Positions 11,636 to 18,498 of a stretch of DNA of 64,000 nt are shown in pieces; the first letter of the stretch is position 1, and each line of letters begins with the position of its first letter. The notes below the pieces were generated by a model, which saw only the letters and a list, made by a program, of their open reading frames with translations, did no database searches and was not told the DNA's origin. The stretch comes from Chlamydiia bacterium (lineage in GTDB: Bacteria; Chlamydiota; Chlamydiia; Chlamydiales; Rhabdochlamydiaceae), in the NCBI GenBank assembly GCA_963804085.1, contig CAWDOQ010000019.1, positions 64,001-128,000 of the forward strand, read 5' to 3'. A program made the translations under genes and the position numbers.

Positions 11636-14516
11636 TCACTCAAGGAGAAGCACTTGTGGCAGGATATTGTCTTTGTCAATGGCTCTTAAAAGGGTATAGC
11701 CAAAACCAGATGCACCTTGCATAAAGCTAGGATCAAAATAGGGGCGAGTTTGTTTTTTATACTGGTGGATCAGCGAAGAGATTGTAGGGCGTAGAAGATC
11801 CTTTAATTCAGGCAAAATGACACTTGCTGAGCGCAAAAATTCCCATTTTCCACATTCTCCACAGCAAAGTGTGATGTTTTCATTGGATAGCAGGGTTTTT
11901 CGAGTCAATTCGACAGAAGTTGTGATTTCCTGGTGTATTTCTTCGTCTTGCAAAAAAGGAAGAGAAGCTAATCGGCCAAAACCTACTCCAACCGCACCAT
12001 GACACCATTGAACAGGAAAAGTGGGCTCTTTTTTATCGCTAAATCGTGGCCAATTTTTTTTCTTTGAGCAAAAATGCCTGCGTTCAAAAGCAAGCGCTCT
12101 TTTCACTGTTTCAAGAAAATTGGGTTGTTTTGTCTCATTTCCTAACTTGAGAAGAGAGTAGGTGATCCCCGCAATTCCATGAGAAAACCCTAAAAAACAA
12201 AACCCTTTGCAATGTTTCCAGGCAAGAGAGCCCTGCTCATCTTCTTGCGCATGCATTCTTAATTGTTCCGCTGCCATTTTTGCCAGTTCAAGGATCGGTT
12301 CCTCGGTTGTGTCTTTCCATAAGGAAAGAAGAGAGAGTATCAGGCCTGCTCTCCCGATCACGATATCAAACATTTTGTCATTATCGAAATGCTTCTCATG
12401 AATCGAATGAGCTAGCAAGCTTGCTTCTTTAAAAAGAGCTGGCTCTTGAATGAGCTTTCCGATTTTGGAAAATCCATAGATTATGCTCCCCACACCCGAC
12501 ATGCCACCAATGCCCATCGCATCCGCCATTCTTTTACCCATGCCTTTTCGGATCTTATCTTGGATGCTTTTGAGTGTGCTTAAGGTAGCCTCTTTCCATA
12601 TTATGTTCTGGGTAGTTGCATAAAGAGCAGAAAAGAAAAGGGCGATACCCACCTTGCCACTATATAGACAGTCACTTATAGCCCGCAGCTCATATCTACT
12701 ATATCCAACATTGGGCTCCAAATGGATCCATCCTAGAGAACCATCATTGGAGCGTATGGCATCATGCAAAATAGTATATCCTATTTTTTCTGCTTCTTGC
12801 AAAATTTCTTCATCGCCCACATTCTCTTTAAGAATAGGGGTAGCTTTAGATTTTTTTGTTTTTCTCTTTTCTTGGGTGTGGAATTGCGCGTCCCTCGCAT
12901 AAAAAGATTTGCGAATGAAAGCCTCTTGCTGCTGGCACTTATCCTCAGACATGCTTTGAATCCGTTCGATCGCCGAATTATAGCCGTTCTTCTCAAGACA
13001 ATCGCACAAGATAAACTCTTTTCCAGAATAGAGGTGTTGCTCTTTTAGAAATCCGAAAAAGAGAGGCGCATCTCCTTGAAGAAGCGCTCGTTTTTCTTCT
13101 TCGATTAAGGGAGCAAGATGTTCTAAGCCTGGTTCAATGAGCAAAGAGGCAAGCAGCTTGAGCTCTTTTTTTTTGTATCTCTTTATCTAAAATTACGTGG
13201 GGTAGTGCAAGCTGATCGAGTAAATATCCATAAAGGCGAGTGGAGCGAAAGACGATGCGCACAGGAGATTTTGCGAATTGATCTATCCATCCTCCTTTTT
13301 GGGTAAATAACGAGGTTTTTTGCGCGATGAAACTATACATGCATTTAAAGCCGTTTACGATCTCTTCGATATAAGCATGGGCTTCTCGAAGAGAGTTATT
13401 ACATACCACTTGGTGATACAACCACTCCTTTTTTTCCATCTCTTGATAATTATATAATTCATCCGTTCTCAGATTTCCCCATTTGAGAACAGAATATGCG
13501 ATATTTTCGCCTGTCAATCCTCCGATGTCAGGCCCACGTTCACCTTCTCGCTCAAGAAAAACGGGAAGGAGTGCGGTTTTTAAGACAGAATGGTTCATAA
13601 GCTCTTTTTCGAGCTGTCTGTCTTTGCGAGTGAGCTCGGAATGAAAAAAAGTTTCAAAATCGATCAAAATAGGATATTCACCAGCTGCGATGATGTTTTC
13701 AAGGTGGATATCCGTTCCATCAAAAAGATAAAGAAGACATAGGAGCATTCCAGCCCGCTCAAAGTAGCGTGCTACTTGCTTTTCATTTTGACAATGCCTG
13801 TGCTCCACCTTCTCTTCCCACCCATACCCTGCTCTTGAAAGAATTCGATGTCCTTTAAGATCTAAGGGAAGCCCTAATTGATTGAGCTCCTCTAAAAGAG
13901 CATGAAAAGAGCGGGCAAGCGTAAGATTTTTTGGTTTATAATAGAGCTCTTTGCCACACTCGAAAAGGAGATGATAGACAGAGCGTCCTCCCTGATGATA
14001 ATCCCCCATGTTTTGAGTCGCTTTAACGATTTTTCCAAGAGAGACCCCTCCATTGAATGTTTCTGCAAGAAGGTTTAGATCCTCTTCCAGTCGATTTAAA
14101 AACTCTATCGTTTGATCTACCCACAGCTCCAGAAGAATGGTAATGAGGCGACCCAGTTCTTCATATTCAGAAAAAAACTTCCTTAGTCGCTTTTGGTTCC
14201 AAAAGGTTTGATGCATGAAACTGAGATAGCGTGCTTTCGCTGTTTTGCCAGCGAGTTTTCCTTGGGATTTTAAATACGACATCTCGAATGCAAAAGTGGA
14301 GGTTGCGACATCGACCCACCTGTGCACAAGTGCTGCCTCCATTTGGATGATTGCTTGTGGGAAAAGATATTTAAGCTGCCTTTTCGTCCTCTTCTTTACC
14401 CTTCTTCTTGCTACTTCTAGCCAGGGCCAAAACCCTTCCACAAAAGGAAGATTATGCATCGTTTTAGGAACGGGGGCTGGATGGGATGCAGAAATGATCT
14501 CTTTAAGTATTTGCAT
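11636..14516 (-). CDS. lanM: Class II lanthipeptide synthetase LanM, split into dehydratase (13134-14516) and LanC-like cyclase (11636-13144) ORFs by a one-base frameshift in an A9 tract
   Basis: Dehydratase motifs GDYHQGG, YYKPK, GYGWEE, DIHLENIIA, IDFET, FRSTRLY, LLQGDAPLF; cyclase motifs LYSGKVG, GFSHGIAG, WCHGAVG, LCCG. A8 instead of A9 at 13166-13174 fuses the frames (IQKKELKLLASLLIEPG). Confidence 0.92.
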
Positions 14517-14573
14517 CTGTTTTGTTCTTCACCTTAGTGCGTTTTAATAGCTCGTTGAGTTATAGAGAGGCTT

Positions 14574-16267: not shown

Positions 16268-16275
16268 TAGCGCAT

Positions 16276-18498
16276 TTAAAATACAATGCCTCTATTGATC
16301 AGGCCGAGAGGGTCTAGGGTTCTTTTTATTTCTTGGAATTTCCCGTAAACCTTCTCGCCAAAATATGCGCGATAATCGAAGTTTTCTGGAGTAATTTCAG
16401 CTTGGATGTATCTTCGGAAATTTGGGTCTATCAGCACGATCTTGTGAAACTCTTTCTCAAGATTTAAAAGCTCCTGTCTATCGAATCCTTCAGGCTTTTT
16501 TGGCAATCCCCAAACAGCACTTAGAACAAAATCCCCTGTGGACGGATAGAGAAGAGGTGGATTGAAATCAGTGCATTTGAAAGAAGCGCGGAAAAATTCA
16601 CAAGGGATCCATACATCTAAGTGTTCCTTCTCATATTTTCTAAGTAGAGATGCTGCTAAGCTTGCTTTGCTAATCGATGATATGAGAGAAAACCAACACA
16701 TTTTAAGCCGAAAGGGGTGTGTGTTTTTGACTCTTCCCTTGGTCCCCAGTGGATAGACCACTTGACCTCTAGGAACAATCTTGATTTTAGCCTTAGTAAA
16801 ATATCCCAATTGTCCCATAGAGCCAAATAGCCAAGGAAATAACTGATCATCTTTTTTACACAAAACAACCTGGCCCTCTGCTGTAACAAATTCTACCTCT
16901 TCAACTATGTTCCAAAAAGCATTATCACCACTGCCAAATCCAATACCCCCCGCAGAAATGAATCCGCCGAGGCTAGGCGCTGAATAGCTGCCATTATATA
17001 CTGTGAGTCGATAACCATATCTTGCAAGGTGCTCATTTAAATCCCAGACGTTTACACCAGCTTCGACAGTCACAGTATCTGCCTCTTCAAAACTATAGCT
17101 ATTCAGAAGATCGGAACGTATTAACAATTCGCCCTTTTTTGGAAGAGAAGATCCGTTGCAAGAGTGTCCATTTCCACGAATGCGCAGAGAAAGTTTATGT
17201 TGATAAGCCATCGAGATGATCTTGCAAACATCACTGCAGCTTTTTGGGAAAATTTCATAAAAAGATCCACTACAAGAACGGTATTCGCTAAAATCACTTA
17301 TTTTCTCTGAACGTTCTGCGATATAAGAAGAAGGAAAGAGCTGTAAGATCGGGTCATTTCGCGTCTTTTTTGACTGATCATTTATAGGTTTAGTAAGTAG
17401 AGGTTTTTGTGCAGGCATTTCGATAGCCAGGTGTCCATAAGACACATCTAAGTAGATCTTCGCTTTGATCTGTTGATGGCTTTCTGGATTGTATATGAAC
17501 TTGATATGGTGAATGTTTCTAATCACTTGAAGATAAGAGGTTGGATTTTTGCTTGAGACAGCGCTGTTTGGATAAAATACACTTTGATCCAGTGATTCAT
17601 AAAAACCTCCGATCCACGAGAGAGCTCCTTTTTGTTTTTCCGGGGTGGTGAATCCTTCATGCACCAGGAATTGCAAAAAGGCCTCCCATCTTTTTCTTCG
17701 TTCTGAAAATGTGAGGTCTGAAAGAAAACTGCATTCTATGCCCAGTTTCGATTGGATTTGTTCGGAAAGATCTATGTGGAGGACCACATGCGATATAAAT
17801 GGCGCTATCTTCTGTATAAAGTTGATCAATTCTTCTCTTTTGTGCAGGTAGCCAACCTTATCTAAAAAATCTCCCAGTGCCTTTCCAGAAGTGCTCAAAC
17901 TGTCAACACAGAGCCTCACACCCTGTCGGGTTCTGGGAAGCATAAAACCAACAAAGTTGATTTTGAGATTTTTAGATAGACATTCGTCACACACCTTTGA
18001 AAGTAGAGCAGCTGGTAGATCAGCGTCAATTTTTAAGAGTGAGAAAAATCCTCGGCAACATTTCACAAGATCTTTCACTTGTGGTCCAGGAAAATAGAGA
18101 TTAGGATCCGGAGGCCATTGTGAGGAACTCCCGACATCAAATTCTGTCCACATGAAATCTATATTTTCTTGCCAAAAAAAATCGTGTTCTTGCGCCTTTT
18201 GCAAAAACGCGAAATAAAGAGACCATAGCTCGCTTTTGCTTATCTCATGAGAAACTTCTCCTTTATGAAAGCTTTTGAGAAGAGAATATAAGTCGGCTAC
18301 AAATAGTGGCATTCTAATCGAAAGATCTACCCAATATTCATCTCCATCCAGTGGGCATTCATAGCCGTAAAAATTGCAATTCATTTTCGGAAGATGAGTG
18401 AGAAATTCTCGTAAACGTTGGATGGATTCATTACCTGCAAGAGCAAGCGGAAGATCCTGCAGTGTTTTTTCAATTATGAATTTTGCATCTAATTGCAT
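16276..18498 (-). CDS. Fusion of an uncharacterised N-terminal domain (~360 aa) and a VAO/PCMH-type FAD-linked oxidase
   Basis: C-half has IRGNGHS, VEAGV, SLGG, VTAEG, GSMGQLG, K-x2-LDP-x2-LINRG; N-half has WTEFD, GFMLPR, LGIEC, HHIKF...KAKIYL. Confidence 0.8.
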   Translation of the reverse strand: MQLDAKFIIEKTLQDLPLALAGNESIQRLREFLTHLPKMNCNFYGYECPLDGDEYWVDLSIRMPLFVADLYSLLKSFHKGEVSHEISKSELWSLYFAFLQKAQEHDFFWQENIDFMWTEFDVGSSSQWPPDPNLYFPGPQVKDLVKCCRGFFSLLKIDADLPAALLSKVCDECLSKNLKINFVGFMLPRTRQGVRLCVDSLSTSGKALGDFLDKVGYLHKREELINFIQKIAPFISHVVLHIDLSEQIQSKLGIECSFLSDLTFSERRKRWEAFLQFLVHEGFTTPEKQKGALSWIGGFYESLDQSVFYPNSAVSSKNPTSYLQVIRNIHHIKFIYNPESHQQIKAKIYLDVSYGHLAIEMPAQKPLLTKPINDQSKKTRNDPILQLFPSSYIAERSEKISDFSEYRSCSGSFYEIFPKSCSDVCKIISMAYQHKLSLRIRGNGHSCNGSSLPKKGELLIRSDLLNSYSFEEADTVTVEAGVNVWDLNEHLARYGYRLTVYNGSYSAPSLGGFISAGGIGFGSGDNAFWNIVEEVEFVTAEGQVVLCKKDDQLFPWLFGSMGQLGYFTKAKIKIVPRGQVVYPLGTKGRVKNTHPFRLKMCWFSLISSISKASLAASLLRKYEKEHLDVWIPCEFFRASFKCTDFNPPLLYPSTGDFVLSAVWGLPKKPEGFDRQELLNLEKEFHKIVLIDPNFRRYIQAEITPENFDYRAYFGEKVYGKFQEIKRTLDPLGLINRGIVF

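Follow-up and report, generated by a model that had tools for sequence, protein, structure and literature searches.

A gene island for a putative prenylated, oxidatively tailored class II lanthipeptide in a chlamydial genome

Introduction

What kind of peptide might a chlamydia make with a lanthipeptide synthetase, a precursor peptide and two flavoproteins that are all encoded side by side? This question is raised by an island of genes in a 64,000-nucleotide (nt) stretch (positions 64,001 to 128,000 of contig CAWDOQ010000019.1; hereinafter, the window, i.e., the whole stretch of DNA that was analysed) from the genome of a Chlamydiia bacterium (G000; other G numbers denote the genomes of the chlamydial phylum that were scanned). 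This genome comprises 2.13 Mb in 24 contigs and is 91% complete. A preliminary description of the window placed a class II lanthipeptide biosynthetic island in a chlamydial genome at positions 11636 to 18498, and this location stands: every part then described is present, and G000 is placed in one family with genome G359, so that the host is chlamydial indeed. The description of two island genes as flavoenzymes has to be amended. Two genes for proteins with flavin-binding domains are present, but in one of them the flavin-binding part, an oxidase of the VAO type, is fused to a predicted ABBA-fold prenyltransferase (PT), which makes prenylation, followed by oxidation, the likely tailoring. The identities of the genes, the fusion, the genomic associations and the insertion of the island can be read directly from the genomes; the interpretation that we favor, and regard as fairly probable, is that these genes jointly make a class II lanthipeptide that is prenylated and tailored by oxidation.

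The Prenyltransferase-Oxidase Fusion

The fusion protein of 740 amino acids (aa) is encoded on the minus strand (16276..18498), convergently with the precursor gene. Its first ~370 residues (residues 1–370; 17389..18498) form a separate domain ahead of the oxidase, which makes up the C-terminal part of the protein (16276..17388) and is recognized by the FAD_binding_4 model (PF01565, E 3.8e-26) at residues 416–547. The N-terminal domain has no sequence match in Pfam, NCBIfam or the PDB. A tblastn search of the whole genome revealed two paralogs, stand-alone proteins of 338 and 364 aa encoded on contigs C17 and C12, respectively, which match the first ~350 residues of the fusion protein and each adjoin a precursor with an NHLP leader. 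A profile made from the three paralogs retrieves 1,977 representative clusters at E ≤ 0.001, mostly of 330–380 aa.

The AlphaFold2 (AF2) model of this domain, which was built from an alignment of 80 family members (pLDDT 92.9, pTM 0.91), consists of 12 strands flanked by helices, in repeated helix-strand-strand-helix units. In a Foldseek comparison with the PDB, every match listed down to rank 50 is an ABBA prenyltransferase (probability 1.00, TM-score 0.4–0.55); these matches include CdpNPT, PriB, DMATS1, 6-DMATS, AmbP1, Orf2, FunA, PirF, and PagF. Seven residues (E47, D121, P132, R189, K333, K347, and Y349) are invariant among the 80 diverse family members and three more (D58, D243, and R327) are nearly so, with several of the invariant ones falling in barrel strands of the model. 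In ABBA prenyltransferases, the residue types responsible for catalysis and diphosphate binding are Glu, Arg, Lys, and Tyr. The predicted structure thus identifies the N-terminal domain as an ABBA-fold prenyltransferase.

Fusions are not confined to this island. A 754-aa protein, P0002, has the same arrangement of a PT and a FAD_binding_4 domain and is 51% identical to the island protein over the full length, and other members of the PT family are fused to squalene-hopene-cyclase-like domains (P0114, P0117, and P0137), 2OG-Fe oxygenase domains or sulfotransferase domains. In G359, a precursor gene (core VGTQKYIWDK) is followed by genes for a PT of 350 aa and a separate VAO oxidase of 461 aa. 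Given that the two genes are adjacent but separate in this genome, the fusion in G000 and in P0002 joins genes that are neighbors elsewhere.

A complex of the PT domain with the island precursor was predicted with a score of 0.55, weak by the calibration given below, compared with 0.00 for the best of three controls; the runs agreed in at least 78% of the contacts, and the pLDDT of the partner was at least 70. Of 157 solved complexes, 116 pass the mark applied to such predictions, as do 2 of 215 mismatched pairs; only 18 of the 157 solved complexes pass it with scores of 0.60 or less, the range into which both passing mismatches fall. The model therefore weakly suggests that the PT domain binds the precursor.

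The oxidase domain has 60 relatives in the PDB at E ≤ 0.001, the best sequence matches being L-galactonolactone dehydrogenase, cytokinin oxidase and xylitol oxidase (E 6e-11 to 5e-10). It is homologous over its full length to the stand-alone 461-aa oxidase of G359, and its cap domain gives only a weak match (PF02913, E 0.36).

The Second Flavoprotein

The other flavoprotein, of 441 aa, is encoded on the plus strand (14574..15899) and contains an N-terminal FAD_binding_3 domain (E 3.8e-7), with the GAGPAG and GDA motifs invariant in the family alignment. The AF2 model, built from 5 sequences (pLDDT 77), retrieves in Foldseek the monooxygenase domain of MICAL, Tet(50), PHBH, and FlsO1 as best matches (E 6e-16 to 1e-13), which points to a class A (PHBH/MICAL-type) flavin monooxygenase fold. 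A flavin-dependent halogenase was considered and rejected: the matches are mostly hydroxylases, with a single halogenase (RadH) at rank 41, and WxWxIP, the motif of tryptophan halogenases, is not seen. Likewise, the domains found in the two flavoproteins, FAD_binding_3 and FAD_binding_4, led us to reject a LanD-type decarboxylase or a LanJ-type reductase.

Homologs of the 441-aa protein are encoded in 16 of 401 genomes of the phylum (G000 counted), with 30–36% identity outside G000. A closer relative, P0152 (46% identical), is encoded on a 6,199-nt contig; the PT-oxidase fusion P0002 comes from a contig of equal length, and both are probably encoded on a single contig. One of the homologs (G222:C14:314728-318549; P0154) carries the NCBI name of a 'Verrucomicrobia bacterium' metagenome-assembled genome (MAG) although the genome is placed in the chlamydial phylum; the label may be outdated.

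The Lanthipeptide Synthetase

The class II synthetase (LanM) is carried in two overlapping frames of the minus strand, the N-terminal part with the DUF4135 dehydratase (13134..14516; PF13575, E 3.9e-91) and the C-terminal part with the LanC-like cyclase (11636..13186; PF05147 LANC_like, E 6.3e-59). The two parts match positions 3–428 (384 bits) and 448–931 (378 bits), respectively, of the LanM model TIGR03897, each above its cut-off of 304 bits, and this is the single LanM of the genome. Alignment to CylM (5dzt) indicates that the dehydratase motifs GDxH, YKPK, TDxHxEN, IDxET, and RxxxRxT are kept; the aligned residues are those with catalytic roles in LanM dehydratases. In the alignment to LicM2 (6st5), the cyclase motifs GFSHG and WCHG are kept as well, and LCHG of LicM2 is replaced with LCCG. 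The CCG zinc-ligand motif represents the ligand set of the ProcM type. By these motifs and family models, the protein is classified as a ProcM-like class II lanthipeptide synthetase that is split in the assembly. The preliminary claim of recognizable dehydratase and cyclase motifs is fully supported, and searches with the models for DUF4135, LANC_like and the NHLP leader all yielded matches.

The overlap of the frames lies at a run of nine A (A9; 13166..13174, minus strand), where the N-terminal frame reads ...ILDKEIQKK and then stops, and the C-terminal frame, which is open from 13186 and has its first start codon at 13144, reads KKELKLLASLLIEPGLEHL... The closest homologs are uninterrupted here (...REKELEILSKLMLEPGLEHL... 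and ...EQKKELEILS...), and the two frames meet exactly at the lysine codons of the A run, where they can be joined without the loss of a residue. Because the homologs are continuous across the junction, a run shortened by one A (A8) would yield a complete, normal protein of ~960 residues. Public reads cover the island with only three contigs of 151 nt, from two soil-metagenome runs of one study, all within 12752-13315; among public runs containing the stretch, none of RNA was listed. One of these (depth ~2) spans 13057-13208 with one base fewer at 13166, i.e., A8, and no other differences; another one ends at 13167 with its last 2 letters unaligned and is compatible with A8 but does not show it. 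The frameshift is either a slip in the A9 run, in the assembly or in the population, or a very recent inactivation.

Stand-alone proteins that correspond to one half of LanM, either the dehydratase (~500–540 aa) or the LanC-like half (~450 aa), are encoded in many chlamydial genomes (123 of 400, E ≤ 0.001; for example, G232:C209, G335:C30, G265:C135, G053:C1, and G060:C1).

The Precursor Peptides

The precursor gene of the island (15950..16267, plus strand) encodes a 105-aa protein that matches the leader_NHLP model TIGR03793 with 66.4 bits (cut-off 50.9). The predicted cleavage, of the double-glycine type, follows ...EKIAAG and releases a core of 16 residues, SGHCLPTTVSWGGGCI (16217-16264), with two Cys, four Ser/Thr and a single Trp; the cleavage site aligns with the ...AAG, ...SGG, and ...AGG of eight other precursors that are adjacent to PT genes. 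Thus, the NHLP-leader precursor with Ser, Thr, and Cys in its core, as proposed in the preliminary description, is real, but the picture of a single precursor has to be extended given that it is one of seven in the genome. All seven score above the TIGR03793 cut-off; they are spread over five contigs, three of them adjoin a PT gene, and five have cores that combine Cys with Ser/Thr. The second precursor of the window (45964..46335, plus strand; 71.6 bits; core ...VTDAKGCTIMPYCG) is encoded directly after murC and the ftsQ-like end of a cell-wall gene cluster and has two Cys in its core. No maturase gene is present nearby, and this precursor is a possible further substrate of the LanM.

Distribution of the Enzymes in Chlamydiae and Beyond

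LanM proteins scoring above the family cut-off are present in 14 of 400 genomes of the phylum. Ten genomes other than G000 carry it in one open frame of 921–1073 aa. Around 12 chlamydial LanM genes, NHLP precursors are found in five loci, with as many as eight in G031 and seven in G099. The PT family has representatives in 5 of the 400 genomes (three in G000, two each in G031 and G099, and one each in G359 and G084), and four of these five genomes, G084 being the exception, also encode LanM. An NHLP precursor is located within 150 nt of each of the nine chlamydial PT genes, at a distance of 3–138 nt for the six genes outside G000. In both PT-oxidase systems for which the precursor is known, the core contains Trp; most of the cores that accompany a PT without an oxidase contain Tyr. 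At one locus of G031 (L040; G031:C6:157079-161074), an NHLP precursor and a PT are followed by a gene that by eye is DUF692/MbnB-like, and a neighboring gene encodes a protein whose Cys-rich motif is radical-SAM-like; the locus may represent a further combination of tailoring enzymes.

The neighborhoods of LanM genes were compared with 80 named non-chlamydial loci, obtained by scanning species genomes with a LanM alignment, and the closest chlamydial LanMs were taken from the phylum search. At 10 of the 80 loci, the hidden Markov model (HMM) of the PT family matches an open reading frame located no more than 3 kb from LanM. Three of these loci are cyanobacterial (Brasilonema, Leptolyngbya and one more), three come from Chloroflexota and two from Bacteroidota, and the others belong to a Leptospirales MAG and an actinobacterium. 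The same HMM has no match at the 12 chlamydial LanM loci. Neither the VAO oxidase nor the 441-aa protein is found at any of the scanned LanM loci, be it the 80 non-chlamydial or the 12 chlamydial ones.

In the phylogenetic tree of 89 C-terminal parts of LanM (IQ-TREE in quick mode, LG+G4, SH-aLRT support; L108 was dropped as a duplicate of L018, and L023, L086, and L087 because their matches were shorter than 350 aa), the G000 protein pairs with that of G031 (55% identity, support 99). This pair is nested within six LanMs of the same family (98) and then within ten chlamydial LanMs (96), to which a group that mixes LanMs of cyanobacteria and Chloroflexota is sister (98); two further lineages of chlamydial LanM fall elsewhere in the tree. 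A recent transfer of LanM from cyanobacteria was considered and rejected given the position of the G000 protein inside the chlamydial clade. The tree topology fits best with movement of LanM among chlamydiae, rather than recent acquisition from another phylum, and the source of the inserted segment probably was another chlamydia. The GC content of the loci of the relatives ranges from 0.36 to 0.47.

Insertion of the Island

The inserted segment extends from 11629 to 18599 (6,971 nt) and contains five genes. The preliminary impression of an AT-richer segment was correct, with a GC content of 0.41 compared with 0.477 in the remainder of the window. The segment lies at the 3' end of a MORN-repeat gene (10700..11623, plus strand; PF02493, E 2.5e-13), between direct repeats of 83 nt that are 93% identical. 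The left repeat (11546..11628) is the end of the intact MORN gene, and the right one (18600..18682) is a remnant of the last 25 MORN codons that reads MAPKIEHIYKNGERQLAQECCCVIL*, with 24 of the 25 residues identical. This pair accounts for the only two copies of the repeat in the whole genome. Immediately after dnaK, a hairpin of 13 pairs (18682-18711) abuts the right repeat; this adjacency of the 25-residue remnant and the dnaK hairpin indicates that the right repeat is the old end of the MORN gene, with a shared terminator, so that the insert apparently brought along, or created, a new MORN gene end. None of the five island genes is recognized as an integrase in family-model scans. From its flanking repeats and GC shift, the island is best described as an inserted segment with no recognizable mobile element.

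On contig C12, a MORN gene, a methyltransferase gene, a PT gene and a precursor gene are likewise neighbors, which makes recombination between MORN genes a plausible route of insertion. In the six nearest relatives examined, grpE and dnaK are present, and neither the island genes nor the MORN and methyltransferase genes are found downstream of dnaK; with all of these genes missing there, no empty insertion site can be demonstrated. A NagZ-like gene is present in only one of these six relatives (G248), 5.5 kb away.

No Rfam family reaches its gathering score within 10000-20000. A promoter scan gave 10 sites, compared with a mean of 14 in shuffled sequences, and given this deficit, we claim no operon structure.

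Export and Isoprenoid Supply

A set of export genes adjoins an NHLP precursor on contig C22. It includes genes for a TolC-like protein, a HlyD-type protein (TIGR03794, 185 bits, cut-off 156), a peptidase/ABC transporter (TIGR03796), and a partial match to TIGR03797. The TIGR03796 gene is carried in two frames that score 334 and 558 bits against a cut-off of 853.

The genome encodes MiaA and two polyprenyl synthases (for this set of enzymes, the sites noted include 48965-49987 of the window). As these enzymes need isoprenoid precursors, the cell must obtain C5 units somehow. Together with ispH, ispG, dxs, and the HMG-CoA reductase gene not being found, this gene content suggests that the bacterium depends on isoprenoid precursors of the host, and a host supply of the prenyl diphosphate donor for the PT is possible. 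Among other genomes, ispH is present in G099 and G359 and is not found in G337.

Relation to Known Systems

The closest precedent is the MppM/MppE/MppC system of Moorena producens, in which a leader-dependent ABBA prenyltransferase geranylates Trp of a LanM-cyclized peptide (Wakeel, McShan, Agarwal, JACS 2025; PMC12715784). Common to both systems are a LanM of class II, a precursor whose leader is long and structured, and an ABBA prenyltransferase (soluble in the case of Mpp), all within one cluster, as well as a Trp in a short core, and the PT family described here is found beside LanM also in loci of cyanobacteria, the host group of Mpp. The leader is of the NHLP type here and Nif11-like there, the island adds the fusion to a VAO-type oxidase and a class A monooxygenase, and the host is a chlamydia in which the isoprenoid precursor pathway is not found. 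Judged by fold and context, not by the sequence of MppC, the island PT and MppC appear to belong to one family. In an earlier-described pathway, prenylation of the lanthipeptide reportedly comes after macrocyclization and the partner is a terminal cyclase, in contrast to the flavin oxidase that is the partner of the PT here; the fusions of PT domains to squalene-hopene-cyclase-like domains would fit, by analogy, such a logic of prenylation followed by cyclization.

Prochlorosin-type systems employ one ProcM-like LanM to modify many NHLP or Nif11 precursors that are scattered in the genome. The island and its genome resemble these systems in the NHLP leaders, the CCG motif of LanM, the seven precursors on five contigs and the location of the NHLP export genes elsewhere, and so do G031 and G099 with many precursors (eight and seven, respectively) beside LanM; the additional enzymes for prenylation and oxidation and the chlamydial host are the differences.

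The coupling of prenylation with flavin-dependent oxidation has a counterpart in the early steps of ergot alkaloid biosynthesis, where the ABBA prenyltransferase DmaW is followed by EasE, a FAD oxidase of the BBE/VAO type; cytokinin oxidase, too, acts on an isopentenyl side chain. The likeness to DmaW/EasE, i.e., an indole ABBA prenyltransferase coupled to an oxidase of the VAO superfamily that modifies the prenyl group, is an analogy that extends to mechanism only: these enzymes and cytokinin oxidase are unfused, and their substrates are free amino acids or bases rather than a leader-bound peptide.

No characterized chlamydial lanthipeptide was found in the literature on lanthipeptides, biosynthetic gene clusters and peptides made by the ribosome and modified after translation (RiPPs) of chlamydial families, in agreement with the preliminary description, which named none. 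Predicted clusters of the class II and proteusin types are, however, already in print. Data S10B of Dharamshi et al. (2022) includes a 'lanthipeptide-class-ii' region called by antiSMASH in a Rhabdochlamydiaceae genome (PMC9666466), and a predicted 'proteusin' cluster in a chlamydia is given in a 2026 paper on a hydra symbiont (PMC13229535). The available portions of both sources contain cluster-type calls only, with no PT, PT-oxidase fusion, precursor sets or products. Fusions of a PT to a flavin oxidase were not found in the literature on prenyltransferases of NHLP peptides and lanthipeptides, although the supplement of PMC12715784 and Hubrich et al. (2024) could hold one.

The combination of LanM with an ABBA prenyltransferase is itself a recently described kind; the novelty of the island is in the PT-VAO oxidase fusion, the added class A monooxygenase and the chlamydial host. 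It was only in 2024–2025 that prenylated lanthipeptides became known, from cyanobacteria, and the island extends them to Chlamydiota. The fusion together with the monooxygenase points to oxidative chemistry on a peptide-bound prenyl-indole. The large PT family, which lacks a Pfam model and in several phyla is linked to LanM and NHLP precursors, should be useful for genome mining.

The Proposed Pathway and Alternative Explanations

In the pathway that we propose, the 105-aa NHLP precursor would be bound via its leader, and the ProcM-like LanM would dehydrate Ser/Thr residues of the 16-residue core and close thioether rings, most simply between Ser1 and Cys4 and between one of Thr7, Thr8, and Ser10 and Cys15. 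The PT domain of the 740-aa protein would then add an isoprenyl group, most likely to the single Trp, and the fused VAO-type oxidase and the separate class A monooxygenase would oxidize the prenyl or the indole moiety. The order LanM, PT, oxidases is proposed by analogy with MppM/MppC, where the PT is leader-dependent and acts after cyclization (PMC12715784). Judging from the alignment of precursors, the leader would be cut after ...AAG, and the product would be exported by the NHLP-type C39-peptidase ABC transporter encoded on contig C22, with HlyD and TolC. Up to four other Cys-containing NHLP precursors may also be processed by the same LanM, as in prochlorosin systems. The whole segment would have entered the chromosome by recombination in the 3' end of the MORN gene.

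Several observations weigh against an operative pathway of this kind. In the assembly, lanM is frameshifted (+1, at A9), and the evidence for A8 comes from one contig with a depth of ~2, from a study that may itself be the source of the assembly. The TIGR03796 exporter gene (G000:C22:68734-70897) is interrupted, too, at a junction (model position 282) that contains no homopolymer, and the NagZ-like gene beside the island (8577-10200) is split as well. Because the assembly interrupts lanM as well as the exporter gene, the functional state of the system is uncertain. As for the prenyl donor, ispH, ispG, dxs, and the HMG-CoA reductase gene were not found in the 91%-complete G000, and ispH was not found in the PT-encoding genomes G031 (99% complete) and G084 (97%) either. 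The core adjacent to the PT of G084, NADTECCCS, contains no aromatic residue, so that Trp or Tyr is not a universal acceptor. Finally, the homologs of the 441-aa protein in the five other chlamydial genomes inspected occur singly, none of them near a precursor, PT or VAO gene, and the assignment of the island protein to the pathway follows from adjacency here and from the relative P0152.

The breaks can be accommodated by an alternative in which the cluster is a decaying, non-functional remnant that yields no mature lanthipeptide, with lanM and the NHLP exporter gene as genuine pseudogenes. We consider this unlikely, though a serious contender. Beyond the frameshift in lanM and the exporter break away from any homopolymer, it draws on further genes, since several genes seem to be spread over two or three frames (the NagZ-like gene and, by eye, the PutP-like and UhpC-like genes, G000:C19:200223-201674 and G000:C2:341718-343095) and on the isoprenoid precursor pathway not being found; the junctions examined are outside long homopolymers, and several split genes are compatible with both real gene decay and an error-prone assembly. 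Yet each break amounts to one frameshift that costs no residue, LanM keeps all of its catalytic motifs, the remaining island genes are full length compared with their homologs (740 vs. 754 aa and 441 vs. 432 aa), all seven precursors are intact, and one metagenome contig carries the frame-restoring A8. A different possibility is that the PT-oxidase and the monooxygenase alone mature the precursor to a linear prenylated peptide, with LanM dispensable or dead and the Cys residues otherwise used. Such a system would be in line with the pairs of PT and NHLP precursors that lack core Cys and a nearby LanM (one on contig C17 of G000, two in G099, and one on contig C7 of G359) and with G084, which has a PT but no LanM match. 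The island core, however, has two Cys and four Ser/Thr, its gene is 1.4 kb from the motif-intact LanM in the same inserted segment, and the Mpp system cyclizes before it prenylates (PMC12715784), so we deem the linear product quite improbable.

Even less credit, a very small chance in our estimate, goes to the view that the ABBA-fold domain is a non-catalytic module for docking the leader and that flavin oxidation is the only real chemistry. The failure to find the prenyl donor pathway and the weakly suggested binding of the precursor are what this view can call upon; the seven invariant and three nearly invariant columns in 80 members, several of them in barrel strands, are difficult to reconcile with it, and so are the facts that most family members stand alone at 330–380 aa and that some are fused to terpene-cyclase-like domains. 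That the island is an assembly chimera or a contaminant from outside the chlamydial chromosome is hardly credible: its GC content is below that of the flanks, the 24-contig assembly has an estimated contamination of 4.97%, and the reads cover three short pieces of the island with none crossing a junction, but chlamydia-type genes flank the island on either side within a contig of 379 kb, its LanM groups with its counterparts from the same chlamydial family, another six NHLP precursors and two paralogs of the PT are encoded elsewhere on five contigs, and the flanking repeats are imperfect copies of the end of a resident gene, with the old terminator beside the right copy. On balance, we favor the cluster for a prenylated and oxidized lanthipeptide.

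If this cluster is active, a multi-precursor RiPP system with its own exporter exists in a lineage seemingly without synthesis of isoprenoid precursors, which raises the question of host metabolites being used to build bacterial natural products. A bolder scenario is that an obligately intracellular bacterium unable to make isoprenoid precursors takes prenyl diphosphates of the host to lipidate its own ribosomal peptides, by means of a PT-oxidase that makes an oxidized or cyclized prenyl-Trp new to RiPPs; in its entirety, this is a speculation that we would rate as doubtful. If true, the pairs of NHLP precursors and PTs, with or without LanM, would constitute a system with which soil chlamydiae lipidate peptides and which is directed at the host or at co-infecting microbes.

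Other Genes of the Window and the Genome

All four MORN-repeat proteins examined, including the one at the insertion site, have CaaX-like ends with Leu as the last residue: CVIL (window 10700-11623), CVIL (G000:C2:294522-295193), CIIL (G000:C12:20818-21735), and CTIL (G000:C2:121043-121471). The remnant at 18600-18682 retains the CaaX-like box as well. A CaaX box with a terminal Leu is the form that is recognized by eukaryotic geranylgeranyltransferase I, and going by these termini, the MORN-repeat proteins may be effectors that are prenylated by the host.

Three GroEL paralogs are encoded in the genome, all of which score below the cut-off of the GroEL2_Chlamy model (NF038370), for which reason this model does not serve here as a marker of the phylum. 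Close to the start of the window (4294-5616, plus strand), a gene encodes a metal ABC permease that carries a fused DtxR/MntR-like repressor domain (residues 348–438), an arrangement that presumably corresponds to the chlamydial YtgC-YtgR (YtgCR) fusion, which it resembles.

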